The notes under the pieces were generated by a model. It did no database searches, was not told the origin of the DNA, and saw only the letters and a list, made by a program, of their open reading frames with translations. Below are positions 32,695 to 54,520 of a stretch of 64,000 bases of DNA, piece by piece. This DNA comes from Chloroflexota bacterium (GTDB taxonomy: Bacteria > Chloroflexota > Limnocylindria > QHBO01), in the NCBI GenBank assembly GCA_052388515.1, contig JBQTHZ010000022.1, positions 25,102 to 89,101 on the forward strand. Direction: 5' to 3'. The position numbers and the translations under genes are program-made. The number at the start of each line of letters is the position of its first letter. Positions within the stretch are counted from its first letter, which is position 1.

Positions 32695-32818
32695 CTGAGG
32701 CCAGAGGGTACCGGGCGACCGACATTGCCGCCGTGCGGCGCTGGACCGCGTGCGGCACGCTATGGCCAACGAGCCCGGCGAACGCTTAGGGTTCGGGCAC
32801 GCACCGCAGGATGGACCG

Positions 32819-39103: not shown

Positions 39104-39209
39104 GCTCGAAGCCTAACCGATGAGCCCATTGCCAGCTGCCAGCGAATCGCCCAGGCTGCCGTGGGACGTGCCACACTGTCATACGCCGTCATACGAGTCC
39201 GGGAGGCCG

Positions 39210-41756
39210 ATGCGCAAGGCTGAACTGCCGCACGTCGAACGCCGCGACCACCACCGCGCGCGCCTCAGCGCTGCCGGCCTGGCCGCCGTGCTCACGCTCG
39301 GCACGGCTTCGTACCCGGCCGACACGTCGGCGGCGGATCCGCGACAGGCAGCGATCGAGCAGGTCGCCGTCGAGCATGGCGTCGCGCCATCCGACCTGGA
39401 GGTCGTCAACGAGCGACAGGCGACCAGTGGCGGAGAGACACTCAGCGCGGTGAAGCTGTTCGACCGCCACAGCGGTGAGATCCACTCCGTGTACCGCGAT
39501 GTGCGCGGCGTGATCGGCGACGGCACGGTTCTGCAGGCGGTTACTGACAGGGGCGCGGTCGACCTGACGGTGCTCGAGCGCAAGGCCGATGAGCCGCTGC
39601 TCGCGGCGGTCGCCGAGCTGCCCACCGAGGGCACGTTGCGGGTTGCCATCTGGACCGACGTCGACACGGGCATCGCAGCGGAGGCGGTCCGCGCCGTCCA
39701 TCCGGAGGTCACATGGCTGGCGGGACGGCCCGTGACGGATGACCTCGCGCAGCTGCGGTCGCTCCGCGGCGAGCTGTGGGAGGCACGTCGCGTCGTGCTC
39801 ATGGCGGCGGCCGATCGCCTCCGAACGCGGGTCGAGGCCCAGGGGGGAACGGTCGCGTATGCGAGCACCTCGTCTCCACTCGTCTTCGCTGACATGCCGG
39901 CGACCGGCGTGGAGGCGCTCGCATCCCTCCCGGAGGTGACGAGCATGGGCCTCGAGGGGACCTGGGAGACCCAGATGTCGAGCGCCGGTCGTGCCGTCGG
40001 CGCGAACTGGACGAGCGGGAGCGGCGACCAGGGCAATGGCGTCCGAGTGGGGGTGGTGGAGTACCAGAACGTTCGCAATACCGGCGACATGGCAGGGCAG
40101 GTGGCACGCTCATACAGCACCACCGGCTCGCTGTCGTATGGCAGCGGTGGCGGCGATCATCCGACCTGGGTCGCCGGCGCCGTGGCGAGCAGGAGCGGCA
40201 CCTATGCCGGCGTGGCACCGGGTGCGGACATTGTCAGCGCGTCGACGGGTGGGTACCGACCCAGCCTCGCCACGGACCGAGCGATCATCGCCGCGGCGGA
40301 TTGGGCGATCTCGCCCTCGGGCGGCGACGCGGACATCCTGAACGCCAGCATCGGCCAGGACACCGCGACCGGAGCGGAGGAAGCACGCCGGTACTTCGAC
40401 TCGATCGCCTGGGAGGATGGCCGCCTCGTCGTGGCCGCATCAGGAAACTACGTCACCTTCGGCAACTGGGACGTCGTGTCGCCCGGGACCGGATACAACG
40501 TGCTCACCGTGGGCGGCATCAATGATCGCGGCACTGCCGGCACCTCCGATGACCGGCTCTGGTACGTGCCGGGCTCGAATGGTGCGGCCTACCGTGACCG
40601 GACCGATGCCTCCTGGAACGTGCACGGCGACTACAACAAGCCGAACGTGTCGGCACCATCGGTCAGCGTCAGGACGGCGAACGGCATCATCGGCGATGGC
40701 ACGAGCGTCGCCTCGCCGATCGTGGCCGGGGTTGCCGCCCAGCTGGTGGCCCGTGCGCCGGCACTCGCCGCCTGGCCAGAGGCGACGCGCGCGCTGGTCA
40801 TGGCCGGCGCCTTCCGCCGCAGCCCGATGCCGAACGGCGGAGTCGATACCGACCACGAGGGCGTCGGCACCGTGTCGGCGACCTGGTCGAACCGGGCGCT
40901 GGTCAATGGCAACGGCACGTACGGTGGGTACGTCTTCGGCGCAATGACACGTGGGCAGACGGTCGTTCGCGAAATCCCGGTGGTGGCCGGTCAGCGGGTC
41001 CGTGCCGCGCTCGCATGGAGCAGCCACACCTCCGGTTCGAACACCACCAAGGCCGATGCGCTGATGGCGGACCTCGACCTGCGCATCATCGCGCCGAATG
41101 GGGCCGTGACCGGGTCGTACTCGTGGGACAACCCGTACGAGGTCGCGGAGATCACCGCGGCGACGACCGGTACCCTGCGGATCGAGATCCGGCACGACCG
41201 CTTCGATGCCGCAGAAGAGCCGTACGGCCTCGCCTGGACGGTGCGCGGTCCATTCTTCGACGCCGATGACTCTCCGTTCCGCGCCGACATCCTGTGGGCT
41301 GCCCGCGAGGAGATCACGGCCGGCTGCGCCACGAATCGCTACTGCCCGGGCGCGGCGGTGACGCGCGAGCAGATGGCCTCGTTCCTCCGTCGCGCGGGCA
41401 ACGTGCCCTCGTCATCGATCGATCGGTTCACCGATGACGATGCGTCGATGCACGAGGCGGACATCAACGCGATCGCCGCCGTCGGGATCACCGGTGGCTG
41501 CGCCACGTCACGCTATTGCCCGCGCAGCCCGGTGACCCGCGAACAGATGGCGTCCTTCCTGGTGCGGGCGCTGGACCTGCCGGCCGGCAGCCGAGACTAC
41601 TTCACCGATGACGAGGGCAGCCAGCACGAGGCCGCCATCAATGCCCTTGCCGCGGCCGGAATCACCGGTGGCTGCGCCACCGGGCGCTACTGCCCGGGCG
41701 CCACGGTCACGCGCGGCCAGATGGCGGCTTTCCTCCATCGTGGTTTCGGTCCGTGA
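39210..41756 (+). CDS. Secreted S8 (subtilisin-like) serine peptidase with three C-terminal SLH domains
   Basis: GGAGG RBS and signal peptide. Subtilase His box HPTWVAG and Ser box GTSVASP. Three tandem ~50-aa repeats of F.D......H...I.A.A..GIT.GCAT.RYCP...VTR.QMA.FL fit the S-layer homology domain. Confidence 0.8.
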   Translation: MRKAELPHVERRDHHRARLSAAGLAAVLTLGTASYPADTSAADPRQAAIEQVAVEHGVAPSDLEVVNERQATSGGETLSAVKLFDRHSGEIHSVYRDVRGVIGDGTVLQAVTDRGAVDLTVLERKADEPLLAAVAELPTEGTLRVAIWTDVDTGIAAEAVRAVHPEVTWLAGRPVTDDLAQLRSLRGELWEARRVVLMAAADRLRTRVEAQGGTVAYASTSSPLVFADMPATGVEALASLPEVTSMGLEGTWETQMSSAGRAVGANWTSGSGDQGNGVRVGVVEYQNVRNTGDMAGQVARSYSTTGSLSYGSGGGDHPTWVAGAVASRSGTYAGVAPGADIVSASTGGYRPSLATDRAIIAAADWAISPSGGDADILNASIGQDTATGAEEARRYFDSIAWEDGRLVVAASGNYVTFGNWDVVSPGTGYNVLTVGGINDRGTAGTSDDRLWYVPGSNGAAYRDRTDASWNVHGDYNKPNVSAPSVSVRTANGIIGDGTSVASPIVAGVAAQLVARAPALAAWPEATRALVMAGAFRRSPMPNGGVDTDHEGVGTVSATWSNRALVNGNGTYGGYVFGAMTRGQTVVREIPVVAGQRVRAALAWSSHTSGSNTTKADALMADLDLRIIAPNGAVTGSYSWDNPYEVAEITAATTGTLRIEIRHDRFDAAEEPYGLAWTVRGPFFDADDSPFRADILWAAREEITAGCATNRYCPGAAVTREQMASFLRRAGNVPSSSIDRFTDDDASMHEADINAIAAVGITGGCATSRYCPRSPVTREQMASFLVRALDLPAGSRDYFTDDEGSQHEAAINALAAAGITGGCATGRYCPGATVTRGQMAAFLHRGFGP
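41277..41753 (+). repeat. Three tandem SLH-domain coding repeats (about 150-174 nt each)
   Basis: Repeat units start near 41277, 41427 and 41601. Confidence 0.7.
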
Positions 41757-42480
41757 TCCGCGGCGCGCCGGCGCCGTCCTGGTCGTCGTCGGTCTGCTGA
41801 GCGCCTGCACGACCGACACGCCGCCGTCCGCCGCGCCGCGCGGCTCGACGGCCTCCCCCACGATGGCGGCACCACCGCAATCCTCATCCCCGTCACTGTC
41901 ACCGCAGTCTTCGTCGACCGTGAATCTGCCGGATGGCCTCGCCGTGCCGGAGCCCGAGCGAGCATTCGACCCCGCGACCCTGCTAGATGCCATGCGCACC
42001 TCACGGCGCCCCGGCGGCGTGCCCGATCGGCTCGAGACGGATGCCATCGCATCCGCCCTATCTGACGCGATCCGGGTCTACGGCGGACAACCGTGGACCA
42101 CGATGGCGATTGGAGGGTCCTGCGGTTCACAGATATGCACGCTGGAGGTCGCCGGCACCCGCTCGGGCAACCTCGGCGAGGATCTGTGGGTCTTCGACGT
42201 CACGCCTGCGAGTGGGGCGGTTCAGCTGGTCAGCGCTGACCTGCGGTCGCTGCCACCCGACGTCTCGATCCAGCTCGACGAATTGGCCCGCGCCATGCTC
42301 CCGGCGACCAACTTCGAAGGCCTGAACCTCACGAATGTCCGGTGGCTTCCGCCGCCGGACGACGCGCAGTTCGTCCTGAGCTATCGGTCCGGCGAGGAGG
42401 AGGTGAGCACATGTGGGTTGGACATCACTCTCGATGCCGTCGCGCCGGGCATCGTGTCCAGGCTATTCCTCGACTGCTAG
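41740..42480 (+). CDS. Hypothetical lipoprotein
   Basis: GTG start overlaps the S8 stop. Signal VVSVRDPRRAGAVLVVVGLLSAC with lipobox LLSAC. Ser/Pro-rich linker, then a globular domain containing four Cys. Confidence 0.55.
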   Translation: MVSVRDPRRAGAVLVVVGLLSACTTDTPPSAAPRGSTASPTMAAPPQSSSPSLSPQSSSTVNLPDGLAVPEPERAFDPATLLDAMRTSRRPGGVPDRLETDAIASALSDAIRVYGGQPWTTMAIGGSCGSQICTLEVAGTRSGNLGEDLWVFDVTPASGAVQLVSADLRSLPPDVSIQLDELARAMLPATNFEGLNLTNVRWLPPPDDAQFVLSYRSGEEEVSTCGLDITLDAVAPGIVSRLFLDC

Positions 42481-42481
42481 G

Positions 42482-42906
42482 TCACTCGATCCGCAGCGCC
42501 ACCTCGGTGCTCGCACCGTCGCGAATGCGCCAGGCTCGAAGCGACCCGGCCGGGCTCGCGTCGGGATCGGCGAGGGTGGCCAACAGGTAAAAGGCATCGG
42601 GATACTGCGCCGTGCGAAGGTCGGTGGCTGACGGCACCGCGGGCGATCGCGTGTGGGAGTGGAAGATGGCGACCAGGTCCTCGCCCACATCCTCGATGCC
42701 GAAGACGATACGGACCAGGTCGTCGGGATGCACGTTGTAGCGCAGCGGGCTGGCCTCCACGTTTCGAGCCGGATGGAAGGCGGTGGCTCGGCCCGCGCCG
42801 AGGTCTCCGGCGAGCAGGCCACATGCCTCGTTCGGAAGCTCCGTGCGGGCGTGGGCGATGAGCTCATCCGCGAGGGCCGCGGCGATCGATAGCCCGTCCT
42901 TCACCA
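42482..42906 (-). CDS. mec: JAMM/MPN+ metalloprotease (Mec+ type, CysO-processing)
   Basis: JAMM motif E...HSHTRSPAVPSATD. GTG start overlaps the cysM TGA (GTGA). Confidence 0.8.
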
Positions 42907-43851
42907 CAGGAGCGATCCCTCGAGCTCGTCCTCCAGCTCGTCCAGGTCCCGGCTCCACAGGTCAGCGGAGAGGTACTTCCATCCGCCGTCCGCCAGCAGC
43001 ACGACCACCGACCCAGTCGCGATGTCACGGGCGACGCGCACGGCCACCGCGATGGCCGCCCCACACGAGAGTCCGGCGAAGATGCCTTCCTCGCGCAGCA
43101 GCCGGCGCAGACCGATCACCGCGTCGCGATTGGTGACCAGGAATTTATCGTCCAGGACCGACTCGTCGAGCACCGGGGGGACGAACCCCTCATCGAGCGA
43201 GCGCAGCCCCTGCACCCCCTCGCCGGGCAGCGGCTCGGCGGCCACGATGCGCACCCCGGGTCGCTCGCGCTTCAGGTGGCGACCCACGCCGGTGAGCGTC
43301 CCGCCCGTTCCGAGTCCGGCAACGAACACGTCCACGTCCGGGACCTGGTCCAGGATCTCGGGCCCGGTGGTCTCCTCGTGCGACCGGGGGTTGGCCTCGT
43401 TCCCGTACTGGTACGGCATGAAGAGGCTGGCGTCACCAGCGGCCAGCGACTGCGCCAGCCGGATGGCGCCGTTGGTGCCCTCGGCGCCGGGGGAAGGGAT
43501 GATCTCGGCGCCGAAGAGGCGCAGGACCTGCTCGCGCTCTGGCGTGGTGTTGTCGGGCATCACGATCCGCACCGGGTGGCCCAGGTGAGACCCGATCATC
43601 GCCTGGCTGATGCCGGTGTTGCCGCTCGACGGCTCGAGGATCGTCTGTCCCGCCCGCAGCGAGCCATCGGCGAGCGCGGCCTCGATCATGGCCCGCGCCA
43701 CGCGGTCCTTGACGCTGCCGGTCGGGTTGTTGCCCTCCAGCTTGGCGTAGAGGCGCACGCCGTCGTGCGGCGCGAGGCGCCGCAGCTCGACCATCGGGGT
43801 GTTGCCGATGGCGGCGATGAGATCAGGCGCGGCGCCGACCGTGGCCGGCAT
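42901..43851 (-). CDS. cysM: Cysteine synthase CysM (sulfur-carrier-protein-dependent type)
   Basis: PLP-lysine NPTGSVKDR, SGNTG, and GTGGT. Sits directly between cysO and mec as in the mycobacterial CysO-CysM-Mec+ system. Confidence 0.85.
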   Translation of the reverse strand: MPATVGAAPDLIAAIGNTPMVELRRLAPHDGVRLYAKLEGNNPTGSVKDRVARAMIEAALADGSLRAGQTILEPSSGNTGISQAMIGSHLGHPVRIVMPDNTTPEREQVLRLFGAEIIPSPGAEGTNGAIRLAQSLAAGDASLFMPYQYGNEANPRSHEETTGPEILDQVPDVDVFVAGLGTGGTLTGVGRHLKRERPGVRIVAAEPLPGEGVQGLRSLDEGFVPPVLDESVLDDKFLVTNRDAVIGLRRLLREEGIFAGLSCGAAIAVAVRVARDIATGSVVVLLADGGWKYLSADLWSRDLDELEDELEGSLLW

Positions 43852-43855
43852 CGGT

Positions 43856-44131
43856 CTAGCCAGACCCTCCGGCCATGGCGGGCAGGAGGATGATCGTGTC
43901 GTCGCCGCTGACCGCCGTCTCGAGTCCATCGCGATAGCGCACGTCGCGATCGTTGACGTACACGTTGATGTAGCGGCTCAGCTCGCCGTTCTCGGTGACC
44001 CGGTCTCGCAGGGCCGGGTGCTTGCCGAACAGGTCGTCGAGCGCCTCCGAGACGGTGCTGCCGGTCACGTCGACGGTGCGGCTGCCACCGGTGTTCTCGC
44101 GGAGGACGGGAGGGATGCGGATGATGCTCAT
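43856..44131 (-). CDS. cysO: ThiS/MoaD-family sulfur carrier protein CysO, with Ser-Gly extension after the Gly-Gly
   Basis: 91-aa beta-grasp protein ending ...LLPAMAGGSG, i.e. GG is not C-terminal. Confidence 0.75.
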   Translation of the reverse strand: MSIIRIPPVLRENTGGSRTVDVTGSTVSEALDDLFGKHPALRDRVTENGELSRYINVYVNDRDVRYRDGLETAVSGDDTIILLPAMAGGSG

Positions 44132-44150
44132 GCGTTGTCAGTCCGAGAAG

Positions 44151-45266
44151 TCATGCGCGTGAGCCGGCCGCTGCGAGCGGCTCGGTGCGCGCGATGCCCT
44201 CGCCGCAGGCGGGGCAGGCCGGGTCACGCCAGATTCGGACCTCGTCGAAGCTGGTGCCCATGGCATCGAACATGAGGAGCCGGCCGGAGAGCGTCTCCCC
44301 CACCCCCAGGACGAGCTTGAAGACCTCGTTCGACTGGAGCATGCCGATGACCCCGGGCAGGACTCCGAGCACGCCGGCAACGCTGCAGGCAGGCGCCAGC
44401 TCGTCCGGCGGTTGGGTCGGGTACATGCATCGATAGCACGGCCCCTCGAACGGCACGAAGGTCGTGATCTGCCCGTCCCAGCGATAGATCGAGCCATGGA
44501 CGACGGGCTTGCGCAGCTTCACGGCTGCATCGTTGAGCACGTAGCGCGTGTCGAAGTTGTCGGTGCCATCGACGATGACGTCGTAGTCGGCAATGAGCCG
44601 TTCCACGTTCTCGGCATTCAGGCGCTCCGCATGCTTGACCACCACCGTCTCGGGATTGAGCCCGTGGATGCTGAGCTCGCCCGAGTCGACCTTGCGCATC
44701 CCGAGCCGATCCGCACCGTGCAGGACCTGGCGCTGGAGGTTCGACTCCTCGACCAGGTCATCGTCGACCAGGCCGATGGTCCCCACTCCCGAGGCCGACA
44801 GGTAGAGCGCCGACGGGGAGCCGAGCGCCCCGGCGCCGATGAGCAGCACCTTGGCGTCGAGCAGCCTGCGCTGCCCCTCGGGGCCGATCTCGGGGATCAG
44901 GGTCTGGCGCGCGTATCGACGCTGCTGCGCCGGCGTCAGGAGCTGCCGCGGCTCCTCCCACTGGCCACCCTGCTCCTTCCAGTGGCCGATGGGCGCCTTC
45001 ATGTTCACGACGTTGGTGTAGCCCATCTCCGTGAGCCATCCGGCTGCACGCGCGGAGCGCGCACCCGTGGCGCAATGCAGCAGCAGCGGAGCGTCCCTGT
45101 CGGGCTCGATATCGCCGATGCGCTGCGGCACGTCGCGGAATGGCACGAGGGTCGCATCCACGACGTGGCCCGCGTCCCATTCGCCCTGCTCCCGGACGTC
45201 GATCACGCGATAGCCATCGCGCGCCAGGGCCACCGCCTCGGCGGCGGCCACCTCGCGGAATGTCAT
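44151..45266 (-). CDS. Sulfur-carrier E1 (MoeB/ThiF/MoeZ-like) with N-terminal rhodanese domain
   Basis: N-terminal rhodanese with active-site loop HCATGARS. E1 nucleotide loop VLLIGAGALGSPS. Zn CxxC pairs CYRC and CPAC. ATG overlaps the sufU TGA. Confidence 0.85.
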   Translation of the reverse strand: MTFREVAAAEAVALARDGYRVIDVREQGEWDAGHVVDATLVPFRDVPQRIGDIEPDRDAPLLLHCATGARSARAAGWLTEMGYTNVVNMKAPIGHWKEQGGQWEEPRQLLTPAQQRRYARQTLIPEIGPEGQRRLLDAKVLLIGAGALGSPSALYLSASGVGTIGLVDDDLVEESNLQRQVLHGADRLGMRKVDSGELSIHGLNPETVVVKHAERLNAENVERLIADYDVIVDGTDNFDTRYVLNDAAVKLRKPVVHGSIYRWDGQITTFVPFEGPCYRCMYPTQPPDELAPACSVAGVLGVLPGVIGMLQSNEVFKLVLGVGETLSGRLLMFDAMGTSFDEVRIWRDPACPACGEGIARTEPLAAAGSRA

Positions 45267-45685
45267 GGTGCTGAGCCTCCTGCGAGCACGTCGGCCTCGT
45301 CCGGCCAGCGGGCCTCTGCGCCGATGACGGCGCCCTGGAGCACCTTGTAGCTGAGCAGCGCGCACTTCAGTCGGGCCGGGCCGATCGGCACGCCCAGGTT
45401 CTCGATGACCTCTCTCGGATCGATGCCGCGCAGCTCGTCCAGGCTCTTGCCACGCAGCTCATCGGTCAGGATCGAGGCCGAAGCCTGGCTGATGGCACAG
45501 CCACGCCCGTCGAAGGCGACGTCGGCGACGCGATCCTTCGCCTCGTCGAGCAGCAGGGTCATCGACATCTCGTCGCCGCAGGTCGGGTTCGAATCGGCGA
45601 AGTGCAGGTCATGCGGATCGAGCACGCCCTTGTTATGGGGCTCGCGATAGTGCTCGAGGATGAAATCCCGGTAGAGGTTGTCCAT
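45263..45685 (-). CDS. sufU: SufU/IscU-like Fe-S assembly sulfur-acceptor protein (NifU N-terminal family)
   Basis: Conserved Cys ligands in NPTCGDE, GRGCAIS and LKCA. Confidence 0.8.
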   Translation of the reverse strand: MDNLYRDFILEHYREPHNKGVLDPHDLHFADSNPTCGDEMSMTLLLDEAKDRVADVAFDGRGCAISQASASILTDELRGKSLDELRGIDPREVIENLGVPIGPARLKCALLSYKVLQGAVIGAEARWPDEADVLAGGSAP

Positions 45686-45692
45686 CGATATC

Positions 45693-46952
45693 TCATGCAG
45701 TTCCGAAGAGGCGCTGGGTGGCGTGGATGGCATCGGCGAGGCGCTCGATGTCGTCGACGTCGTTGTACACGTAGAAGCTGGCGCGGGTGGTGGCCGGCAG
45801 ATCGTAGCGGGACATGACCGGCTGGGCGCAGTGGTGACCCGCCCGCACGGCGACGCCATGGCCGTCGAAGACGGTGGCCACATCGTGCGGGTGGACGCCA
45901 TCGATGACGAAGCTGATGACGGCCGCGTGCTCATCCGGTGACGCGGGGCCGAGGAGCCGCACCCCGTCGAGCTCCCCGAGCCTGTCCCAGGCGCGCTCGA
46001 ACAGGAATCGCTCGTGGGCGCGGACGTTGTCCATGCCCAGCCCCTCGAGGTAGGCGATGGCCGCCGTCAGTCCGGCGGCCTCCGCAATGGCCGGCGTGCC
46101 GGCCTCGAACTTGAGCGGCACCTCCGCCCAGGTCGTGCCGGCCAGGGTCACCTTGCTGATCATGCTGCCGCCGGTCATGAAGGGTGGCATCGCCTCGAGC
46201 AGCTCCCGGCGGCCCCAGAGTGCGCCGATGCCCGATGGCCCGAGCATCTTGTGGCCCGACAGCGCCAGGAAGTCGACGCCAAGCTCCACGACCGAGACGG
46301 GCATGTGCGGAACGCTCTGCGCGGCGTCCAGGATCACGAGGGCGCCGGCTTCGTGCGCCATGCGGCTGACCTCGGCAACCGGGTTGATCGTTCCCAGAGC
46401 GTTGCTGACGTGGCCGATGGCGACCAGCTTCGGTCCCCTGGCCAGCCGCCGGCCGAGATCCTCGAGGTCGAGCCTGCCGTCATCGGTGATGGCGACGTAC
46501 TCGAGCGTCGCACCGGTATCGGCAGCGAGCTGCTGCCATGGCACCAGGTTGGCGTGGTGCTCCATCTCGGTCGACAGGACCAGGTCTCCGGCCGCGACGT
46601 TCGTGCGCCCCCAGCTGTACGCGACAAGGTTGATGGCCTCGGTCGCATTGCGGACGAAGACGACTTCGCGCTCGCTCGGTGCATCGATGAAGCGCGCCAG
46701 CGCCGCGCGGGCGCCCTCGAAACGCGCCGTCGCGTCCTCCGAGAGCTCGTAGATGCCGCGGTGCACATTTGCGTAGTGGTGCCCGTACGCGTCCGACAGC
46801 GCCTCGATGACGGCGCGCGGCTTCGGCGCGGAGGCCGCCGAGTCAAGGAAGGTCAGCGGATTCCCGGACCGATGCGGACGATCGAACACCGGGAAGTCGG
46901 CGCGCAGCACGGAGCCGTCGAAGACGCCGGGTCGGAGCTGCTTGATCGCCAT
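45693..46952 (-). CDS. sufS: Cysteine desulfurase SufS
   Basis: PLP-lysine SGHKMLGPSGIG and catalytic Cys RAGHHCAQP, in class V aminotransferase fold. Confidence 0.9.
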   Translation of the reverse strand: MAIKQLRPGVFDGSVLRADFPVFDRPHRSGNPLTFLDSAASAPKPRAVIEALSDAYGHHYANVHRGIYELSEDATARFEGARAALARFIDAPSEREVVFVRNATEAINLVAYSWGRTNVAAGDLVLSTEMEHHANLVPWQQLAADTGATLEYVAITDDGRLDLEDLGRRLARGPKLVAIGHVSNALGTINPVAEVSRMAHEAGALVILDAAQSVPHMPVSVVELGVDFLALSGHKMLGPSGIGALWGRRELLEAMPPFMTGGSMISKVTLAGTTWAEVPLKFEAGTPAIAEAAGLTAAIAYLEGLGMDNVRAHERFLFERAWDRLGELDGVRLLGPASPDEHAAVISFVIDGVHPHDVATVFDGHGVAVRAGHHCAQPVMSRYDLPATTRASFYVYNDVDDIERLADAIHATQRLFGTA

Positions 46953-46966
46953 CGGTCCCTTCGGTC

Positions 46967-47823
<857 letters not shown>

Positions 47824-47827
<4 letters not shown>

Positions 47828-48321
47828 GAATTCCTTGCTTCCTGCGTGGTCATGGCTGAGTGCTGTGCTGCGCGCCTGCGGCGAACCGCAGGCGGATAGG
47901 GCGGGCCTCCGGCCGTGGCGATCACCTCGGCCAGGTTCGTTGCCCCGAGTGTCGAGGAGAGTGACTCGTACACGCGCTGGAAGATCTCGTGCACGCTGCA
48001 TGGCTGCGGCCGGTCGCAGTGCTCGAGATCATCGGCGCCGGCGCACGGCATCTCGAGCAGCGGGCCCTCGAGCGCACGGACCGCCTCGGTCATGGCGATC
48101 TCGTCCGCCGGTCGAGCGAGGCGGTAGCCGCCCGCCTGCCCGCGCGTGGCGCTCACGATGCCGGCACGGCGAAGGTCACCGACGAGCTGCTCCAGGTAGG
48201 CATGCGGCAGCTTCTCGCGCTTCGCGATCTCGGTCAGCGACAGGCAGGTGTCCTCGGGATCGAGGCGCGCCAGCGTGACGAGGACCCGGATGCCGTACTC
48301 GGTCCGCGTGCTGATCTTCAT
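47824..48321 (-). CDS. Rrf2-family (IscR/SufR-like) transcriptional regulator with three clustered Cys
   Basis: N-terminal wHTH STRTEYGIRVL..LSLTEIA. Cys cluster CAGADDLEHCDRPQPC. Confidence 0.8.
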
Positions 48322-48325
48322 CGGT

Positions 48326-48658
48326 TCACAGCCTCACCCGGACCTCGTCGCCATCGACGATCGTCTCGTAGGCGTTGACGGCCCGAACCGGCGGAAGGGC
48401 CAGGACGCGGCCACTGAACAGGTCGAAGCGGCCGCCGTGACGCGGGCACTCGACGCCGTTGTCATCCAGCTCGCCCTCCCCCAGGGTCCCGCCGTCGTGG
48501 GTGCAGACGTTGTCGATGGCACCCCATTCGCCGTCCTCGGTCAGGCCGATGCAGAGCGAGCGGCCGTCCACCTCCACCACGCGGACGTTGCCCGGCTCGA
48601 CGTCGCCAGCCCGCGCGACGGTCACGAAACCGCCGACCGGCTGCTCGAGGGCGGTCAT
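48326..48658 (-). CDS. Rieske [2Fe-2S] ferredoxin
   Basis: CTHDGG...CPRHGGRF, the CxH...CxxH Rieske boxes. 110 aa. ATG overlaps the sufD TGA. Confidence 0.8.
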   Translation of the reverse strand: MTALEQPVGGFVTVARAGDVEPGNVRVVEVDGRSLCIGLTEDGEWGAIDNVCTHDGGTLGEGELDDNGVECPRHGGRFDLFSGRVLALPPVRAVNAYETIVDGDEVRVRL

Positions 48659-49899
48659 GCGAGCACCTCGGTCGTACCGATGCGCCGCGCCAGGGCGTCG
48701 AGGATGCGCTCGCGAATCGTCTCGTCCTCGATCTTCGCCACCACCTGCTCGAAGAAGCCGCGTACGATCATGCGCTGCGCAGCGTCCGCGTCCAGACCCC
48801 GGCTCTGGGCGTAGAAGAGGGTCGTCGGATCGATGGCCCCCGCCGTGGCACCGTGGCCGCAGCGCAGGATGTCGTTGGCCTCGATCTCGAGCACCGGGAT
48901 CGGCTCGGCGCCGGCCTGCGGGCTCAGCAGCAGGTTGCGGCACTCCTGGTAGCTGCTCGTCTGCTTCGTGCCGTGGCGCACGTTGGTGACGCCGTAGAAG
49001 GAGGCGTGGGCCCGATCGTAGAGCGCGGAGAGGTAGAGCAGGTCGCTGGTGGTGTGATCGGCGGCCAGGTCCTGGACGGTATTGATGTCGATCTGCTGAT
49101 CGTCGCCGGCGGCCAGCAGGCCGAGCACCTTCGACGTCCCTCCCTTGCCGGTCATCAGGACGTCCAGCCCCAGCTTCGTCACCTTCGAGCCCACCTCGGC
49201 GTTGAGCGTCGTGACGACGGCGTCCTGCCCACACACGACGCGCTCGGCGCCGATCCGCCACGCGCCATCGCCCAGCTGCTGCAGGCTGGCGTAGCGGACG
49301 CGGGCAGCCTGCCCCGCATGCACGTCGGCGATGCCGCCGAACCATGCGGAGGCGCCGTCGGGTGAGACGACCTCCTCGAGCAGTGTCACGCTGCTGCCCT
49401 CTTCCGCCACCACGAGAGAGACTGGGTAGAAGCTGACATCGCCGCGGGCCAGGACCTGACGCGCCACCAGCGTTCCGTCGACGGTCACGCCGCGTGGGAC
49501 GTGGCAGAACAGACCTCCCGTCCAGGCCGCGTGCGCCAGTGCCCAGAAGTGCGCGTGTGAGCTGGGCCCGTCCGCCTGGCCAAGGGAGCGTTGCACGAGC
49601 TCGGGATGTTCACGGACGGCCGTCTGGAGATCGGTCAGGATGACCCCGGCCTCGGCCGCGCCGGGCGGAAGATGGGTCTCGAGGGCCGGCGCGTCGAGCA
49701 GCAGCTCGGCGCCGCGTGGCAGGCCCTCGAGTGACGTTCGCCGCCATTCCTCTTCCTGGCCGGTGGGCGGCGGGGTCTGCTCGGCAGCCTCCCACCATCG
49801 TGCGCGAAGCGCGCGCAGCCAATCCGGCTCGTCGAACCGGTCGCTGATGCGCCCGATCGCGTCGACGTCGAGCGCCGATGCGGTCTGCGTGAGGGTCAT
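48655..49899 (-). CDS. sufD: Fe-S cluster assembly protein SufD
   Basis: SufB/D family fold, C-terminal motif LFYAQSRGLD. Confidence 0.85.
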   Translation of the reverse strand: MTLTQTASALDVDAIGRISDRFDEPDWLRALRARWWEAAEQTPPPTGQEEEWRRTSLEGLPRGAELLLDAPALETHLPPGAAEAGVILTDLQTAVREHPELVQRSLGQADGPSSHAHFWALAHAAWTGGLFCHVPRGVTVDGTLVARQVLARGDVSFYPVSLVVAEEGSSVTLLEEVVSPDGASAWFGGIADVHAGQAARVRYASLQQLGDGAWRIGAERVVCGQDAVVTTLNAEVGSKVTKLGLDVLMTGKGGTSKVLGLLAAGDDQQIDINTVQDLAADHTTSDLLYLSALYDRAHASFYGVTNVRHGTKQTSSYQECRNLLLSPQAGAEPIPVLEIEANDILRCGHGATAGAIDPTTLFYAQSRGLDADAAQRMIVRGFFEQVVAKIEDETIRERILDALARRIGTTEVLA

Positions 49900-49903
49900 C
49901 GGA

Positions 49904-51316
49904 TCAGCCGACCGCGCCTTCCATCTGAAGCTGGATGAGGCGGTTCATCTCGACCGCATACTCCATGGGCAGCTCCTTGACGATCGGCTCGATGAAGCCG
50001 TTGACGATCATGGCGGAGGCCTCCGCTTCCGACAGACCGCGGCTCATCAGGTAGAAGAGCTGCTCGGACCCGACCTTGGAAACCGTCGCCTCGTGACCGA
50101 TGGTCACGTTCTCCTCGTCGATCTCCATGTACGGGTACGTATCCGAGCGCGCGTCGTCGTCGAGGATCAGCGCGTCGCAGCGAACGGTCGACTTCGAGCG
50201 TTCGCAGCCGGGATAGACCTTGATCAACCCGCGGTAGGACGTGCGCCCGGTGCCTCGCGAGATGGACTTCGAGGTGATCAGGCTGGTCGTGTTGGGGGCC
50301 GCGTGGATGATCTTGCCGCCGGCATCCTGGTGCTGGCCGTCGCCGGCGAAGGCGATGCTGAGCACCTCGCCGTGCGCCCGCTCGCCGAGCAGGTAGATGG
50401 ATGGGTACTTCATCGTGACCTTCGAGCCGAGGTTGCCGTCGACCCACTCCATCACCGCATCCTCGTGCGCCACGGCGCGCTTGGTGACGAGGTTGTAGAC
50501 GTTCGAGCTCCAGTTCTGGATCGTCGTGTATCGGACCCGCGCGCCCTTCTTGACGATGATCTCGACGACCGCGCTGTGCAGGCTGGCGGTCGAATACGTC
50601 GGCGCGGTGCAGCCCTCGACGTAGTGAACGCTGGAACCCTCGTCCGCGATGATCAGCGTCCGCTCGAACTGGCCCATGTTCTGGGTGTTGATGCGGAAGT
50701 AGGCCTGCAGGGGCAGCTCGACGTGCACGCCCTTCGGCACGTAGATGAACGATCCACCCGACCAGACCGCGGTGTTCAGCGCGGCGAGCTTGTTGTCGTT
50801 GGCCGGGATGACCGTGCCGAAGTGCTCGCGGAACAGCTCGGGGTGCTCCTTGAGGGCCTGGTCGGTGCCCATGAAGATGACGCCCTGCTTCTCGAGGTCC
50901 TCGCGGATGTTGTGGTAGATGACCTCGGAGTCGTACTGGCCGCCGACGCCGGCGAGGTACTTCTTCTCCGCCTCCGGGATACCGAGCTTGTCATACGTGC
51001 GGCGGATGTAGTCGGGCACGTCATCCCACGACTGGGCGGCCCCCTCCTGGTTGCCGGTGACGTAGTAGTAGATGTCCTGGAAGTCGATCCCGGACAGGTC
51101 CGCACCCCACTTCGGCATCGGGCGCGCGTCGAAGTGCCGATACGCCTTCAGGCGAAGGTCGGTCATCCACGTCGGCTCGTCCTTGATGCGGCTGATCTCC
51201 GCCACGACCTCGGCGCTGATCCCCTTGGCGAAGGTCGTGCGAGGCTGCTCGGCATCGTGCCAGCCATACTTGTACGAGTCGGGAATCTGGGTCAGGGCGG
51301 GATTGGGAAGGGCCAT
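49904..51316 (-). CDS. sufB: Fe-S cluster assembly protein SufB
   Basis: SufB signatures KYGWHD and LFYLMSRGL, 470 aa. Confidence 0.9.
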
Positions 51317-51433
51317 GCGCTCCTCGCGGACTCACGCCGGAATCGCCTCGCGGAGCGAATCCCGACTGAATTGGTCGGTGTTACGAGCTCATTGTCCTGC
51401 ACCTCGCTCGTCCGGTCAACCGACCGGCGGTGG

Positions 51434-52597
51434 TCACCGTGCCGCAGCCGACACCTCCTGCAGGGACGCTCCGCCAGCCACGAGCCGGCGGCCGATATCG
51501 GCCGAGAGCGCACCATCGATGCTTGCCAGGCCGATCACGCGCTCGCCGTGACGGGAGGCGAGCAGCCGATCCCGGATCAGCCACTCCTCGGTCTCCCCTC
51601 CGTCCAGGGTGCCGATGACGTCCAGCGTTGCGCCGCCGATCTCGGTGAAGACCCACGGCGAGGGGACCGCGGGTACCGGCAACCCGATCATCGAGAGCGC
51701 CGCGCGCTCGCCTGCCTCACGCGCCGCGTGCCAGTGCTCGACGCGCTGACCGTTCACGCGGGCGACGTCGCCGGCCGCCCACACCGCCGGATGGTCCGTG
51801 CGCTGCCCGACGTCCACCAGGATCCCGTCTCGTGTCGCAATGCCGGCGGCCACCGCCAGCTCCTGGCGCGGAAGCACCCCGATTCCCGCCACGACGAACG
51901 TGGCGGGAAGGCGTTCGTCGTGGATCCAGGCCGCGTCGTCCGAAAGGCGGCTGATGGCGGACGCGAGGCGCAGCTCCACGCCGGTGCCGGCGAGCCGATT
52001 CGCTGCCCAGCCAGCCAGGCCGAGTCCCATCGTCCCACCCCACAGGCTGGATGACATCTCGACGACTGTCGGCCGCAGCCCGAGGGCGGCCAATGCGGAA
52101 GCGACCTCGAGGCCGATGAACCCGCCACCGACGACGACCGCCGGCGCGCCCGGCGCCGCAGCGATCGCCGCGGCGCGAATGCGGCGCGCGTCCGCCACGG
52201 TCCGCAGCGGCAACGCCGTCACGGCGCCCGGGATCCGGAGCCGGCGAAGCTCCGCTCCGGTAGCCAGCAGGCACCGTTCGAACGTGATGGATCGACCGTC
52301 GGACGTGGTCACTCGCCGCGCGTCGGGCTCGAGGCGGGTGACGTGCGCGCCGGTCCAGAGCTCGATGGAGCGCCGCGTGTACCACGAGCCGGACTCGGCA
52401 GCCAGCAGCTCGTCCGGCAGGTCGTCGCGGAGCAGCTCCTTGCTGAGCGGCGGACGGTTGTACGGTGGATGCTCCTCGGAACCGACGATCAGGATCGATC
52501 CGTCGAACCCGTGGCGCCGGAGCGTGCGGGCGCAGCGAACCGACGCGACGCCGCCCCCGACCAGGAGGACGTCGACTGCATGGTCAGTCCGGGGCAT
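51434..52597 (-). CDS. FAD/NAD(P)-dependent ferredoxin reductase (pyridine nucleotide-disulfide oxidoreductase family)
   Basis: FAD Rossmann VLLVGGGVASV and NAD Rossmann VVVGGGFIGLE. Ends 118 nt upstream of sufB on the same strand. Confidence 0.75.
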   Translation of the reverse strand: MPRTDHAVDVLLVGGGVASVRCARTLRRHGFDGSILIVGSEEHPPYNRPPLSKELLRDDLPDELLAAESGSWYTRRSIELWTGAHVTRLEPDARRVTTSDGRSITFERCLLATGAELRRLRIPGAVTALPLRTVADARRIRAAAIAAAPGAPAVVVGGGFIGLEVASALAALGLRPTVVEMSSSLWGGTMGLGLAGWAANRLAGTGVELRLASAISRLSDDAAWIHDERLPATFVVAGIGVLPRQELAVAAGIATRDGILVDVGQRTDHPAVWAAGDVARVNGQRVEHWHAAREAGERAALSMIGLPVPAVPSPWVFTEIGGATLDVIGTLDGGETEEWLIRDRLLASRHGERVIGLASIDGALSADIGRRLVAGGASLQEVSAAAR

Positions 52598-53621
52598 CGA
52601 CCATGTCCGCGCGCAGCATCGTCGGGACCAGGCGGTCGCGGAGAAGGCGCTGAAGACCAGCCGTCTGGCCGGTCATCACCAGCCAGCCCCGGACGAGGGG
52701 CGGGCCTGCCGCCCGCGCAAGGCTGTGAGCGCGAGCCATGGGATCCCGCCAGCGATCGATGAGCGCATCCGTGCGCGGCGCGTCCGTGCCCAGTGCGGCG
52801 ACCTCGCGACGAACGTTCCGGAGCGGCGAGGCACGTGCCGCAGCGGCAAACGAAGGTGCCAGCTCGTCCAGCGCGCGGTGGACGGCCACGATCCGCGCCC
52901 CGTTCCACCGCGTCCCGACGCCGCGCCCCATGCGCTCGATCTCGTACGCGAGCTCGTGATCGGCCAGCAGGACCTCGCGGCCCACGGCGGCCAGCCCGCA
53001 GTCGACTGTGGTCTCCGGCGATGGGGACCACTCCGGAGCGGGGCGCCGCATGAGCTGGACGAGGTGCCGCCCGGGATACGCCTGCGTCGAGATCACGCGA
53101 ACGAGGCGATCGGCGGTCCACGCCGCCCCGCGGTTGAGGACGAGCGTGCCCGGGTCGAGCTTGGAGCGCCAGGCTTCGGCCGGTCGATCGACGAACTTCA
53201 GGCTCAGCGCATGGTCGACCGAGAGCTCCAGGTCCTCGGCGGCGCGACCCTGGAGCACCCGGAGCATCCCCTCGGCTGCCCGCTCGAGCGCACCGGCGAG
53301 GATGGTCATGCCGGCGTCGTGGGTGGCCAACCGCTCGCCCAGCGTGCCGGGACCGGCGAGGAGCTCGTCCAGGCGCCCCACTGCCGTGTCACTGACGGGC
53401 GGAGCGGAGCAATCGACGATCGATTCGAGATGCGGCTCGGACCCGTCCACGGCCCGGAAGGCGGCCGCCAGCGCACGAGCCTGGACGCGCAGCCAGCTCG
53501 AGTCGGCCTCGGCAGCGACCGCTTCCGCGTCGGCCGCAAGCCGGTCAGCGTCGAATGCCCCCTGCCGGGCGGCGCCGAACGCGGCGACGAGGCGCGCATA
53601 TCGGCCCAGGAGGTCATCCAC
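52584..53621 (-). CDS. Hypothetical protein
   Basis: Long ORF with coding-like composition and no recognisable motif. Overlaps the reductase start by 14 nt. Confidence 0.4.
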   Translation of the reverse strand: MDDLLGRYARLVAAFGAARQGAFDADRLAADAEAVAAEADSSWLRVQARALAAAFRAVDGSEPHLESIVDCSAPPVSDTAVGRLDELLAGPGTLGERLATHDAGMTILAGALERAAEGMLRVLQGRAAEDLELSVDHALSLKFVDRPAEAWRSKLDPGTLVLNRGAAWTADRLVRVISTQAYPGRHLVQLMRRPAPEWSPSPETTVDCGLAAVGREVLLADHELAYEIERMGRGVGTRWNGARIVAVHRALDELAPSFAAAARASPLRNVRREVAALGTDAPRTDALIDRWRDPMARAHSLARAAGPPLVRGWLVMTGQTAGLQRLLRDRLVPTMLRADMVDAPD

Positions 53622-53656
53622 TCCCCCATGCTACCGGCGCGGCTAGACTCGGTCCG

Positions 53657-54520
53657 ATGCCGCTCCCCGATGGCCTCCGCCTGCGCGATGCCGACGCCGC
53701 CGACCTGTCGCGCATCGCCAGGCTGCGCGAAGGGGTCGGCTGGTCGGTGCATGACTGGGCGCTGCGTGCCGTGCTCCAGGGACCGCAGGCACGATGCCTG
53801 GTCGTGGTCGACGACAACGAGCTCGTGGTCGGCGTCGGCTCGGGGATCAGCTATGGAAGGCTCGGGTTCGTCGGCAACATGGTCGTGGACACCGACCATC
53901 GCCGGCGGGGAATCGGCGCCGCGATCCTGCGGGCGGTGGTCGGGTTCCTGGAGGAACGCGGCACGACACGCATGGAGCTGTATGCGACCGCCGACGGGCG
54001 ACCGCTCTACGCGCGCCACGGCTTCGAGCTGACCGGACCGAGTGCCATGGTTCGCGTCCCTCGCGGATTGGTCGTGCGCGTCGACGATGGGATCACCCTG
54101 GACGAAGCCAGCGCGGATGCCGACGCCGACCTGGCCGCGTACGATGCGCCGCGCTTCGGTGGCGACCGCGGCATGGTGCTCCGAGAGGCGCTCGACGATC
54201 CCGACAGGCCGCTCATCCTCGCTCGACGGGATGGCGAGATCCTGGGGTACGGCTGGATCCGCCCGGACGGCGAGCGCATCGGTCCCCTTGTGGCCGATAC
54301 GCCCGAGGTCGCCGCAGCCATCATCGGCGATGCGTTCGACCGGATGCCACGGGCCGATGAGCTGACGCTGAATCTGCCGTCCGACAACGTCGCCGGCGCT
54401 GCCTGGCTGGCAGCGCGTGGCGCGGACCTTGCCCCGTGGGACGGCCGGATGGCGCGCGGACCTGAGATCCCCCGCCGCGGCGACACGATCTACGGCAACG
54501 TGGTGGGGGCGCTCGGGTGA
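53657..54520 (+). CDS. GNAT family acetyltransferase (two-lobed)
   Basis: RRRGIGAAILRAV acetyl-CoA motif. Start at the ATG 53657. Confidence 0.65.
   Translation: MPLPDGLRLRDADAADLSRIARLREGVGWSVHDWALRAVLQGPQARCLVVVDDNELVVGVGSGISYGRLGFVGNMVVDTDHRRRGIGAAILRAVVGFLEERGTTRMELYATADGRPLYARHGFELTGPSAMVRVPRGLVVRVDDGITLDEASADADADLAAYDAPRFGGDRGMVLREALDDPDRPLILARRDGEILGYGWIRPDGERIGPLVADTPEVAAAIIGDAFDRMPRADELTLNLPSDNVAGAAWLAARGADLAPWDGRMARGPEIPRRGDTIYGNVVGALG

Follow-up and report, generated by a model that had tools for sequence, protein, structure and literature searches.

A probable SUF operon carrying an Rrf2 regulator and a CysO-type cysteine module in Candidatus Limnocylindria

We analyzed a 64,000-nucleotide stretch of DNA (the window) from a soil MAG of Candidatus Limnocylindria (Chloroflexota), whose genome has a G+C content of 70%. 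Eleven minus-strand genes, sufB-sufD-Rieske-rrf2-sufC-sufS-sufU-E1-cysO-cysM-mec, extend from position 51316 to 42482 (12 with the reductase gene upstream). With a probability of about two in three, these genes constitute a SUF operon that encodes an IscR-like Rrf2 repressor of its own and continues, 3′ of sufU, into a thiocarboxylate cysteine pathway like that of Mycobacterium tuberculosis. The string is a novel arrangement of known modules and not a new kind of system; its novelty lies in the fusion of suf with the cysteine module and in the position of the regulator, each module having been known previously.

Gene identities, packing and conservation

Pfam, NCBIfam and PDB matches supported the identities of all 12 genes, confirming every assignment of the first-pass annotation. 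Within the SUF core, all on the minus strand, sufB (49904..51316) scored 717 bits with TIGR01980 (cut-off 346) and matched Pfam SUFBD_core, and sufD (48655..49899) matched SUFBD_core at 1.5e-63, with a TIGR01981 score of 215.8 bits, slightly below the cut-off of 222. The scores of sufC (46967..47827; TIGR01978, 312.5 bits), sufS, a type II cysteine desulfurase (45693..46952; TIGR01979, 556.6 bits), and sufU (45263..45685; TIGR01994, 105.3 bits; Pfam NifU_N) were above the cut-offs of 212.8, 475 and 92.5, respectively.

Coordinates and junctions confirmed the tight minus-strand run, and the gene order bore out both the cysteine module immediately 3′ of SUF and rrf2 between the Rieske gene and sufC. 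The sufB-sufD, Rieske-rrf2 and cysO-cysM gaps are 4 nt each, sufS-sufU is 7 nt and sufC-sufS is 14 nt; the claim that gaps were 14 nt or less held for these, but not for E1-cysO (19 nt). Start/stop overlaps also exist, although at four junctions involving eight genes instead of the six genes claimed: ATGA at sufD/Rieske, rrf2/sufC and sufU/E1, and GTGGTGA at cysM/mec. The sufD/Rieske overlap was retained in 46 of 52 loci, and that of sufU/E1 was present in about half (23 of 50).

A comparison of related suf operons found the same order, with embedded Rieske and Rrf2 genes, in 65 species-level genomes of Candidatus Limnocylindria. Because order and overlaps recur in these 65 independent genome loci, the packing is not due to chance; the 70 loci analyzed all fall within a single class, and the conservation could reflect shared ancestry. 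Actinobacterial suf operons (Streptomyces peucetius/avermitilis and M. tuberculosis Rv1460-1466) have the order sufR-sufB-sufD-(Rieske ferredoxin)-sufC-sufS-sufU-(sufT). They share with the present string the order B-D-(Rieske)-C-S-U, sulfur mobilisation by SufS/SufU and, as proposed here, autoregulation by an Fe-S-binding repressor encoded in the operon. However, the repressor here is of the Rrf2/IscR type and stands fourth, whereas the actinobacterial SufR is of the ArsR type and stands first; moreover, the present string is without sufT, has four cysteine-pathway genes at its end, and has a ferredoxin reductase as a conserved upstream neighbour.

Promoter, operator and the Rrf2 regulator

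The 117-nt gap between the reductase gene and sufB contains a sigma-70-like promoter, TTGACC-17 nt-GACAAT (51391..51419, minus strand), found by consensus-pattern match, whose hexamers and spacing were conserved in 39 loci. This was the sole promoter-like site in 41500-54500, and the corresponding site was also the only one on the operon strand in loci L055 and L008; a terminator scan gave no same-strand terminator in the window, L055 or L008, both scans being consensus-pattern matching, which carries little weight in a Chloroflexota genome of 70% G+C. A predicted Rrf2-type operator, AACACCGACCAATTCAGTCGGGATTC (26 nt; 51357..51382, minus strand), begins 8 nt past the −10 hexamer and has the core palindrome CCGAC-N7-GTCGG at 51362-51378. 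Over 39 distinct promoters, the block was near-invariant while its flanks varied. Each locus had one copy, invariably 25-57 nt upstream of the sufB ATG; the sufB ribosome-binding site (GAGGAG read from the sequence at 51320..51325, minus strand) was conserved, reading GAGGA(G/A) in every aligned locus. The window held one exact operator match, with 0.35 expected when up to 2 mismatches are allowed. In metagenomes, the exact motif was essentially exclusive to sufB promoters, lying directly upstream of sufB in 64 of 75 hits; the hits included one unrelated sequence, seen twice. The palindrome showed no covariation, indicating that it is a DNA site and ruling out an RNA hairpin.

The first-pass annotation had named 51317-51433 and the region upstream of 52597 as places to look for an Rrf2 operator. 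The conserved promoter and predicted operator were located in the former and nowhere else, and the search upstream of 52597 gave no operator. The single promoter-like site, the lack of a terminator, the four overlaps and the one operator are consistent with a single sufB-mec transcript, and from these we infer co-transcription; the proposal of one transcript stood for sufB-mec, but not for the reductase gene. The operator is similar to that of Myxococcus xanthus RisR, whose footprint at the isc and suf promoters is likewise a promoter-overlapping palindrome, AT-rich on both sides of a GAC-N7-GTC core (PMC9973013).

The regulator gene (47824..48321, minus strand; 165 aa; Pfam Rrf2, 5e-33) encodes an IscR-like putative Fe-S sensor. 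Its best PDB match was Thermincola potens IscR (4cic), with identical C-X8-C-X5-C spacing, and it falls in a separate clade whose members share <53% identity with any other sequence. It shares with IscR (Escherichia coli, T. potens) and RisR the winged-helix Rrf2 fold, the three-Cys cluster site and the encoding alongside target genes. In contrast, it is a mid-operon gene, has only one target site in each 20-kb locus and carries a C-terminal extension of ~25 residues, whose coding end overlaps the sufC start. That the protein is instead a CymR-like repressor sensing cysteine or O-acetylserine status, not Fe-S cluster status, appears highly unlikely. CymR was the best NCBIfam equivalog, JGI labels many orthologues “cysteine metabolism repressor”, and cysteine-synthesis genes are present in the operon; however, the score of 93.9 bits is far short of the cut-off of 195. 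The putative ligands C93, C102, C108 and H111 were invariant in 121 sequences, and the cysteines correspond in alignment to the three mutated cluster cysteines of 4cic, whereas CymR is not known to have ligands of this type. CymR also depends on CysK as a co-repressor, and no cysK is present here.

For an IscR-like repressor, an Rrf2 dimer on the 26-bp operator would cover the transcription start and block initiation at the one sigma-70-type promoter, which would drive sufB through mec. DNA binding would most likely need an Fe-S cluster held by the four ligands. Under cluster shortage or oxidation, the repressor would lose its own cluster, and the resulting derepression would allow the scaffold SufBC2D, the sulfur mobilisers SufS and SufU, and further repressor to be made together.

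The mid-operon position of rrf2, highlighted in the first-pass annotation, is true here but less odd than it appeared, since rrf2 leads in a sister clade (rrf2-sufCSU-E1-cysO-cysM-mec, with no sufBD-Rieske nearby), where the same promoter-operator design lies directly before it. In that clade, opposite-strand genes stand between sufS and sufU, indicating that co-transcription of SUF and the cysteine module is not universal.

The cysteine module and its linkage to SUF

The module, also on the minus strand, starts with a rhodanese-ThiF E1-type adenylyltransferase (44151..45266; 371 aa; Pfam Rhodanese and ThiF), whose start overlaps the sufU stop and is preceded by a strong ribosome-binding site, AGGAGG. 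It scored 474 bits over its full length with NF006444 (cut-off 449) and matched ThiF, MoeB and Uba4 in PDB. The CysO-like sulfur carrier of the ThiS/MoaD fold (43856..44131; 91 aa; Pfam ThiS) matched PDB 4n6e_B (9e-23) and M. tuberculosis CysO (3dwg_C, 6.5e-19). Its C-terminus reads ...AMAGG-SG, and GG followed by two further residues was found in 38 of 40 orthologues, which implies processing. CysM (42901..43851), an O-phosphoserine-type cysteine synthase, had M. tuberculosis CysM as its best PDB match (3dki, 6e-85). The Mec-like JAMM/JAB zinc hydrolase (42482..42907; Pfam Prok-JAB, 2.5e-20) has the motif E...HSH-X7-S-XX-D, which aligns to PDB 2kks.

CysO would thus be made with a two-residue cap, which Mec presumably removes, and Mec would also release cysteine from the CysO-Cys adduct. 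Capped, JAMM-processed sulfur carriers are reportedly found in QbsE/QbsD (Pseudomonas fluorescens) and HcyS/HcyD (Wolinella succinogenes). Their products are thioquinolobactin and homocysteine, respectively, not cysteine. In common with the present module, the carrier is made with residues past GG, and an adjoining JAB/JAMM hydrolase is expected to expose GG; here, in contrast, the product would be cysteine, and the cap processing is predicted.

The CysO-pathway chemistry has been established in M. tuberculosis (PMC11361707; PMC3227635), whose mec-cysO-cysM (Rv1334-1336) and MoeZR (Rv3206c) comprise the same four protein families. The CysM PLP lysine, the equivalent of Arg220 (O-phosphoserine-specific) and the C-terminal tail all match in alignment, and the JAMM motif of Mec is shared. 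However, the order here is E1-cysO-cysM-mec, E1 shares the operon, the module is joined to suf, CysO has two residues beyond GG, and the rhodanese domain is N-terminal in E1 but C-terminal in MoeZR (PMC3227635). The regulator of the M. tuberculosis module is reportedly AosR/SigH (PMC8280819).

Under the proposed regulation, this oxidation-robust cysteine route would be co-made with SUF and would supply the cysteine that SufS consumes. The first-pass annotation had suggested such feeding of SufS; the adjacency stands, but the case for this direction of flow is weakened by 12 related genomes that are without cysO-cysM, with E1 and mec still next to sufU. In L060, one of the 12, a cysO remnant of 31 codons is left, showing deletion. 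Cysteine supply cannot explain why E1 and mec stay beside suf. It is conceivable, if distinctly less probable, that E1 and Mec form a general station for sulfur-carrier activation and processing beside SufS-SufU, with cysteine synthesis as an optional add-on; the E1 rhodanese domain would take the desulfurase persulfide and serve, besides CysO, carriers such as MoaD, ThiS or tRNA-thiolation proteins. M. tuberculosis MoeZR acts on both MoaD and CysO, and a cysteine desulfurase has been proposed to supply its rhodanese domain (PMC3227635); the frequent sufU/E1 overlap points the same way. If the rhodanese sulfur did come from SufS, the cysteine pathway would be a futile cycle. However, in the sister clade and some three quarters of the genomes, E1 and mec flank cysO-cysM, the junctions being overlaps or 4-nt gaps, and no locus contained a MoaD or ThiS gene. 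Moreover, E1 and Mec of the loci without cysO-cysM were unusually diverged, at 52-66% identity compared with 71-74% in more distant loci that have them, suggesting a changed function there and not an ancestral role.

The extended SUF operon must also be weighed against two or three adjacent but independent units (the upstream reductase, suf and E1-cysO-cysM-mec), uncoupled and syntenic by descent within the class, which we regard as doubtful. Shared ancestry of loci from a single class could produce this, some genomes have sufU-E1 spacers as long as 230-268 nt, 8 of 34 loci have an E1-cysO spacer longer than 100 nt, and the sister-clade string is interrupted by insertions, among them a toxin-antitoxin pair and genes on the opposite strand. 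Against it, the sufU/E1 overlap occurs in the window and many other loci, and no second promoter-like site or operator was found anywhere in the string. Furthermore, the suf-cysteine linkage persists across the clades despite an Rrf2 identity of only ~50% and the sufBD rearrangement.

Probable electron supply and the upstream ferredoxin reductase

The Rieske-type [2Fe-2S] ferredoxin (48326..48658, minus strand; 110 aa; Pfam Rieske) has CTH...CPRH ligands, and its best PDB matches were TodB and the naphthalene/biphenyl dioxygenase ferredoxins (BphA3 type). Translationally coupled to SufD, it would be co-made on derepression as the probable electron donor. Likewise, the S. peucetius Rieske ferredoxin lies within the suf cluster and is co-induced when the repressor is lost; it was also assayed with host ferredoxin reductases, SpFdR3 being named in a heading of the paper (PMC12979805).

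The gene upstream (51434..52597, minus strand; Pfam Pyr_redox_2, 3.6e-54) encodes an FAD/NAD(P) ferredoxin reductase of the putidaredoxin-reductase/HcaD/TodA type, with HcaD/AndAa ferredoxin-NAD+ reductases as its best NCBIfam match, under the cut-off. The pair resembles TodA-TodB and BphA4-BphA3 (NADH ferredoxin reductase plus Rieske ferredoxin); in contrast to these, the ferredoxin is coupled to sufD and the reductase forms a transcription unit of its own, and no oxygenase partner was found in the neighbourhood. The first-pass annotation had placed the reductase in the same unit as suf, which we reject: it is sited upstream of the sufB promoter and operator and is coupled to another ORF. Because its distance to sufB varies from 88 to 3506 nt across loci (0.1-3.5 kb), it is a conserved neighbour and not an operon member; in L022, opposite-strand genes separate the two. 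Separately transcribed, this NAD(P)H ferredoxin reductase may nevertheless reduce the Rieske ferredoxin.

The ORF to which the reductase is translationally coupled (52584..53621, minus strand; 345 aa) shares 14 nt with the start of the reductase gene and flanks the operon from outside. It matched nothing in Pfam, NCBIfam or the PDB sequences, and its homologues numbered only 43, all of the Limnocylindria type. Its AlphaFold2 model reached a pLDDT of 92, with weak, zincin-peptidase-like fold matches.

Gene content, packing and synteny of the suf-cysO string

The gene content proposed by the first-pass annotation was borne out, and the genes lie in the window as described. On the minus strand, an FAD ferredoxin reductase gene (51434-52597; Pfam Pyr_redox_2) is followed after a gap of 117 nt by sufB (49904-51316; 717 against a cut-off of 346), sufD (48655-49899; Pfam SUFBD_core, 1.5e-63), the gene for a 110-aa Rieske ferredoxin (48326-48658; Pfam Rieske), an rrf2 regulator gene (47824-48321), sufC (46967-47827; 312.5 against 212.8), sufS (45693-46952; 556.6 against 475) and sufU (45263-45685; 105.3 against 92.5). 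The same strand continues with a rhodanese-ThiF adenylyltransferase, E1 (44151-45266; NCBIfam NF006444), the ThiS-fold carrier cysO (43856-44131), a CysM-type PLP enzyme (42901-43851) and the JAB hydrolase mec (42482-42907; Pfam Prok-JAB). SufB, SufC, SufS and SufU each reached curated equivalog scores. SufD scored 215.8 bits with TIGR01981, slightly below the cut-off of 222, and its position and conservation fit SufD; automatic annotation could therefore leave sufD unnamed. From sufB to mec, the genes are either separated by gaps of 4, 4, 14, 7, 19 and 4 nt or joined by three ATGA overlaps and one GTGGTGA overlap. The limit of 14 nt given in the first-pass annotation is exceeded between E1 and cysO (19 nt), and its six overlap-joined genes become eight, at four junctions.

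The flanking genes are unrelated, encoding a GNAT acetyltransferase, RsgA, 2-oxoacid dehydrogenase subunits, peptidases and an SLH-domain subtilase. An Rfam scan found no known RNA element in the entire window. A 290-aa ORF on the plus strand (41608-42480) converges on mec, with the two stops 1 nt apart, and overlaps the end of the 878-aa SLH-domain subtilase gene (39120-41756, plus strand). This ORF showed no family match and is lipoprotein-like in its LLSAC motif. The subtilase also flanks the operon in L022, one of the related genome loci.

Scanning one genome per species yielded 65 loci, all of Limnocylindria type, and the protein searches were likewise saturated by this class. The window Rrf2 is 100% identical to a protein of a Chloroflexota MAG, and its close relatives carry the name Candidatus Limnocylindria. 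Gene order was read by tblastn with 13 window proteins, and the order sufB-sufD-Rieske-rrf2-sufC-sufS-sufU-E1-cysO-cysM-mec was observed throughout the loci, indicating class-wide synteny. The gaps from sufB to sufU were almost always 20 nt or less, and 4-nt overlaps joined sufD to the Rieske gene in 46 of 52 loci and rrf2 to sufC in 40 of 56. sufU and E1 overlapped by 4 nt in 23 of 50 loci and were 23-268 nt apart in the remainder, and the E1-cysO junction was tight in 25 of 34. The distance from the reductase gene to sufB was at least 88 nt in every locus, with a maximum of 3.5 kb; in L022, an M28 peptidase gene and a DUF6529 gene, both on the opposite strand, separate the two. In lineages with a sufU-E1 spacer of 215-270 nt, a conserved block of ~55 nt, GCAAGTCCTTCCTCGGCCGGCGCGTGAGCTGCCTCCAGTCGACCGGGCGGTGTA, was observed directly after the sufU stop (L042, 4630-4700; L046, 13172-13240; L055, 13173-13240; L056, L058 and L059); this block may represent a small ORF, an RNA element or an extension of sufU. 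The E1-cysO spacers of L004 (5140-5415) and L015 (6834-7005) contain insertions of repeated ATTCACATGAGGCGTG(C/A)A... units, which resemble a small mobile or repeat element.

Promoter, predicted operator and Rrf2 regulator

The sole sigma-70-like site within 41500-54500 was TTGACC-17-GACAAT (51419-51391, minus strand), with hexamers and spacing conserved in 39 loci. Beginning 8 nt past the -10 hexamer lies AACACCGACCAATTCAGTCGGGATTC (51382-51357), a predicted 26-nt operator with the core palindrome CCGAC-N7-GTCGG. The first-pass annotation had suggested looking for Rrf2 palindromes between 51317 and 51433, where this site lies, and upstream of 52597, where none was found. No operator site was detected upstream of the reductase gene, the ‘up’ ORF coupled to it, E1 or cysO. 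The 26-nt block was almost invariant in 39 distinct promoter sequences with varying flanks, occurred exactly once per locus and was located 25-57 nt upstream of the sufB ATG in all aligned promoters. Considered as an RNA hairpin, the operator gave only five invariant pairs and no covariation with RNAalifold, and arm variants such as GTCAG lacked a compensating change. With no covariation, the palindrome thus acts like a DNA site bound by a protein. The Rrf2 repressor RisR has been footprinted on its sites at the isc and suf promoters of Myxococcus, and the window operator matches their architecture of a GAC-N7-GTC core, AT-rich flanks and promoter overlap (PMC9973013).

Two further structures were rejected. 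A second 5′-UTR stem just past the operator, GGGATTCGC...GCGATCCC (51330-51361, minus strand), was unsupported by the RNAalifold alignment fold; it is formable in many loci with differing loop and stem sequences and is absent in several (L040, L052, L022 and L037). The sole other operator match in the window at 2 mismatches, the palindrome CCGATCGATTCGGTCGG (33690-33706), was judged a chance match because it falls within a transporter-like coding sequence (ORF 32750-34123), which is MFS-like in appearance with its ...SDRFGRRP... motif.

The regulator contains an Rrf2 winged-helix domain (PF02082, 5e-33; TIGR00738, 107.9 against a cut-off of 73.3), in which C93, C102, C108 and H111 were invariant across 121 Rrf2 sequences. 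Its best solved relative was the Thermincola potens IscR 4cic. The query cysteines align, at the same C-X8-C-X5-C spacing, with three Ser residues of the 4cic chain, which we take to stand in for the original cluster-binding cysteines in the apo form that was crystallised. This ligand evidence led us to reject a CymR-type reading. The protein also scored below the curated equivalog cut-offs for IscR (80.5 against 207.6), suf_reg_Xantho (71.2 against 110.7) and CymR (93.9 against 195). Among 1.84 billion library representatives at 50% identity, only 11 matched at 1e-30 or better, beyond which the next relatives were 45-52% identical. Since the curated models were missed by wide margins and close relatives were sparse, the sequence places the window Rrf2 in a distinct subfamily with IscR-like ligands.

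The closest outgroup among Rrf2 families likewise carries Limnocylindrales/Chloroflexota names. In this sister clade (L141-L146, Ca. Limnocylindrales; context in five genomes), rrf2 leads the string rrf2-sufC-sufS-sufU-E1-ThiS-PALP-JAB, where ThiS, PALP and JAB denote cysO-, cysM- and mec-type genes. No sufB, sufD, Rieske or reductase gene was found within 10 kb of these strings in the five genomes. As in the window, a promoter, TTGACG-17-TAGACT, is followed by an operator-like sequence, AATCCCGACGAAATCACTCGGATAT, directly upstream of the real start of rrf2; the rrf2 genes as called begin too early and run across both. The shared design indicates that the window layout is equivalent to the sister string with sufB-sufD-Rieske between operator and rrf2, either gained there or lost in the sister clade. 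Insertions between sufS and sufU of the sister clade comprised an unknown 644-aa protein, a GT87 gene or opposite-strand ORFs, and a PhdYeFM/PIN toxin-antitoxin pair separates cysM from mec in L144. These insertions notwithstanding, the linkage of sufCSU to the CysO module is common to both clades.

Cysteine module, Rieske ferredoxin and reductase

The best solved relative of the window CysM was M. tuberculosis CysM (6e-85). Compared with 3dki, the GSVKDR motif with the PLP lysine, the Arg in LRSLDEGF (equivalent to Arg220) and the C-terminal tail LEG.L.W are aligned; the roles of CysM residues, including the O-phosphoserine-binding Arg220, were reportedly described by Agren et al. in 2008. 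CysO matched the proteins of Amycolatopsis and M. tuberculosis (6.5e-19 for the latter). Its C-terminus is capped, reading AMAGG-SG, such that GG is not terminal; among the orthologues in L001-L065, GG was followed by two variable residues in 38 of 40 and was terminal in 2. The two residues beyond GG imply that C-terminal trimming is needed before adenylation, and the cap is probably removed by the adjacent JAMM protein. The JAMM motif of Mec is intact, as NEACG...FHSHTRSPAVPSATD aligns to 2kks with the pattern E...HxH-x7-S-xx-D. In a MoeZ-type E1, ThiF precedes a C-terminal rhodanese domain, whereas the window E1 has both domains with the rhodanese N-terminal (residues 48-130, before ThiF at 151-385, in long-ORF numbering). 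The protein fits NF006444 (474 against 449) and misses the MoeZ model NF005902 (333 against 647).

In 12 loci (L022, L023, L024, L029, L030, L034, L035, L037, L045, L054, L060 and L064), cysO and cysM are lacking and mec directly follows E1. A 31-codon cysO remnant in L060 (14315-14407) shows that a deletion occurred there. In the other eleven, E1 and Mec showed 52-66% identity, a divergence greater than the remaining genes of these loci would predict.

The Rieske protein carries the ligand motif CTH...CPRH, and its best PDB matches were TodB (1.3e-14) and BphA3-type ferredoxins. For the reductase, the nearest NCBIfam types were the HcaD/AndAa ferredoxin-NAD+ reductases. Where enough flank was available, nearly every locus had this gene as a conserved neighbour on the same strand, no more than 10 kb upstream of sufB. 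The first-pass annotation had counted it within the operon; it is a neighbour that lies outside the promoter and is paired with the ‘up’ ORF. This ORF (52584-53621, minus strand, 345 aa) shares 14 nt with the start of the reductase gene, had no match in Pfam, NCBIfam or PDB sequences, and has only 43 homologues, all of Limnocylindria type. Its AlphaFold2 model was confident (pLDDT 92) but gave only weak matches to zincin-metallopeptidase folds (MATCAP, DPP III and M3; E 0.47 or worse), and the family consensus HELAH reads HELAY in the window copy. The ‘up’ protein was rejected as the true redox partner of the reductase, as it showed neither an oxygenase nor a P450 signature, and it neither supports nor contradicts a role of the reductase in SUF.

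In Streptomyces peucetius, a suf-cluster Rieske ferredoxin is induced upon sufR inactivation and was assayed with host ferredoxin reductases, a heading of that report naming SpFdR3 (PMC12979805). A Rieske gene embedded in a suf cluster is therefore not new; the modest novelty here is that a gene for a matching reductase is conserved nearby, upstream of sufB on the same strand.

Proposed supply lines to SUF assembly

To our knowledge, the electron donor of SUF-type Fe-S assembly is not settled, and model organisms have accessory electron-donor and sulfur supply lines that are either undefined or separate. The start/stop overlap of the Rieske gene with sufD in 46 of 52 genomes, together with the nearby matching reductase, makes these two proteins a concrete and testable candidate donor pair for SUF, complementing the Streptomyces ferredoxin reported in 2026 (PMC12979805). 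A broader reading is that SUF in Limnocylindria is hard-wired to both electron-donor and sulfur-relay supply lines under one Fe-S-sensing Rrf2 switch, to which we give a probability of only about one in five. The SufD-coupled Rieske ferredoxin would take electrons from the nearby NAD(P)H reductase and, as the physiological donor, pass them to SufBC2D for persulfide or iron reduction. The rhodanese-E1/CysO relay would be coupled physically and through regulation to SufS-SufU, with sulfur passing between desulfurase and protein thiocarboxylate, for cysteine regeneration under oxidative stress or for feeding other thio-cofactors.

Apart from this broader reading, our preferred and more likely model concerns the switch itself. 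In it, Rrf2, probably cluster-bound, would cover the transcription start when on the operator and so repress the genes from sufB to mec. Iron or oxidant stress would strip Rrf2 of its cluster and thereby jointly derepress the genes for scaffold, ferredoxin and desulfurase as well as those for the repressor and the cysteine pathway.

The link between the cysteine module and SufS-SufU can be read in two ways. The CysO route may feed cysteine to SufS, a role suggested by the finding that stress induces moeZ-mec-cysO-cysM in M. tuberculosis (PMC11361707). The main rival holds that E1 and Mec adjoin SufS-SufU because the rhodanese takes the desulfurase persulfide and serves several carriers, which fits both the dual role of MoeZR (PMC3227635) and the genomes lacking cysO-cysM. 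Cysteine supply to SufS and service to several carriers are compatible rather than exclusive. For cysteine itself, the pairing of SufCSU with the CysO pathway throughout the class suggests co-regulation of oxidation-tolerant cysteine synthesis with Fe-S repair in this abundant, uncultured soil lineage.

Every module belongs to a known family. In the literature searched, we found no description of the fusion of the SUF and CysO pathways, of an internal rrf2 position with a defined operator or of a capped CysO, and a comparative Limnocylindria paper mentions neither suf nor cysteine nor sulfur. We regard this comparative-genomics result as well supported and moderately surprising at most; it does not overturn current understanding.

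Rrf2 and its cognate, invariant operator of 26 bp offer a ready regulator-operator pair for experiment, and the operator is usable as a metagenome marker of the clade's suf promoters. Scanning metagenome contigs with the exact operator pattern gave 75 matches, with sufB immediately downstream in 64. Six were on contigs ending before the downstream gene could be judged, two had a same-strand sufB beyond the 0-120 nt range, two were one identical unrelated sequence, and one fuses the sufB start to the sufU end. In the metagenome locus L096 (WUUC01090290.1, ~1070-1250), the promoter, operator and first sufB codons run into the last 46 sufU codons and then E1, a junction that is either a natural sufB-to-sufU deletion or an assembly chimera.
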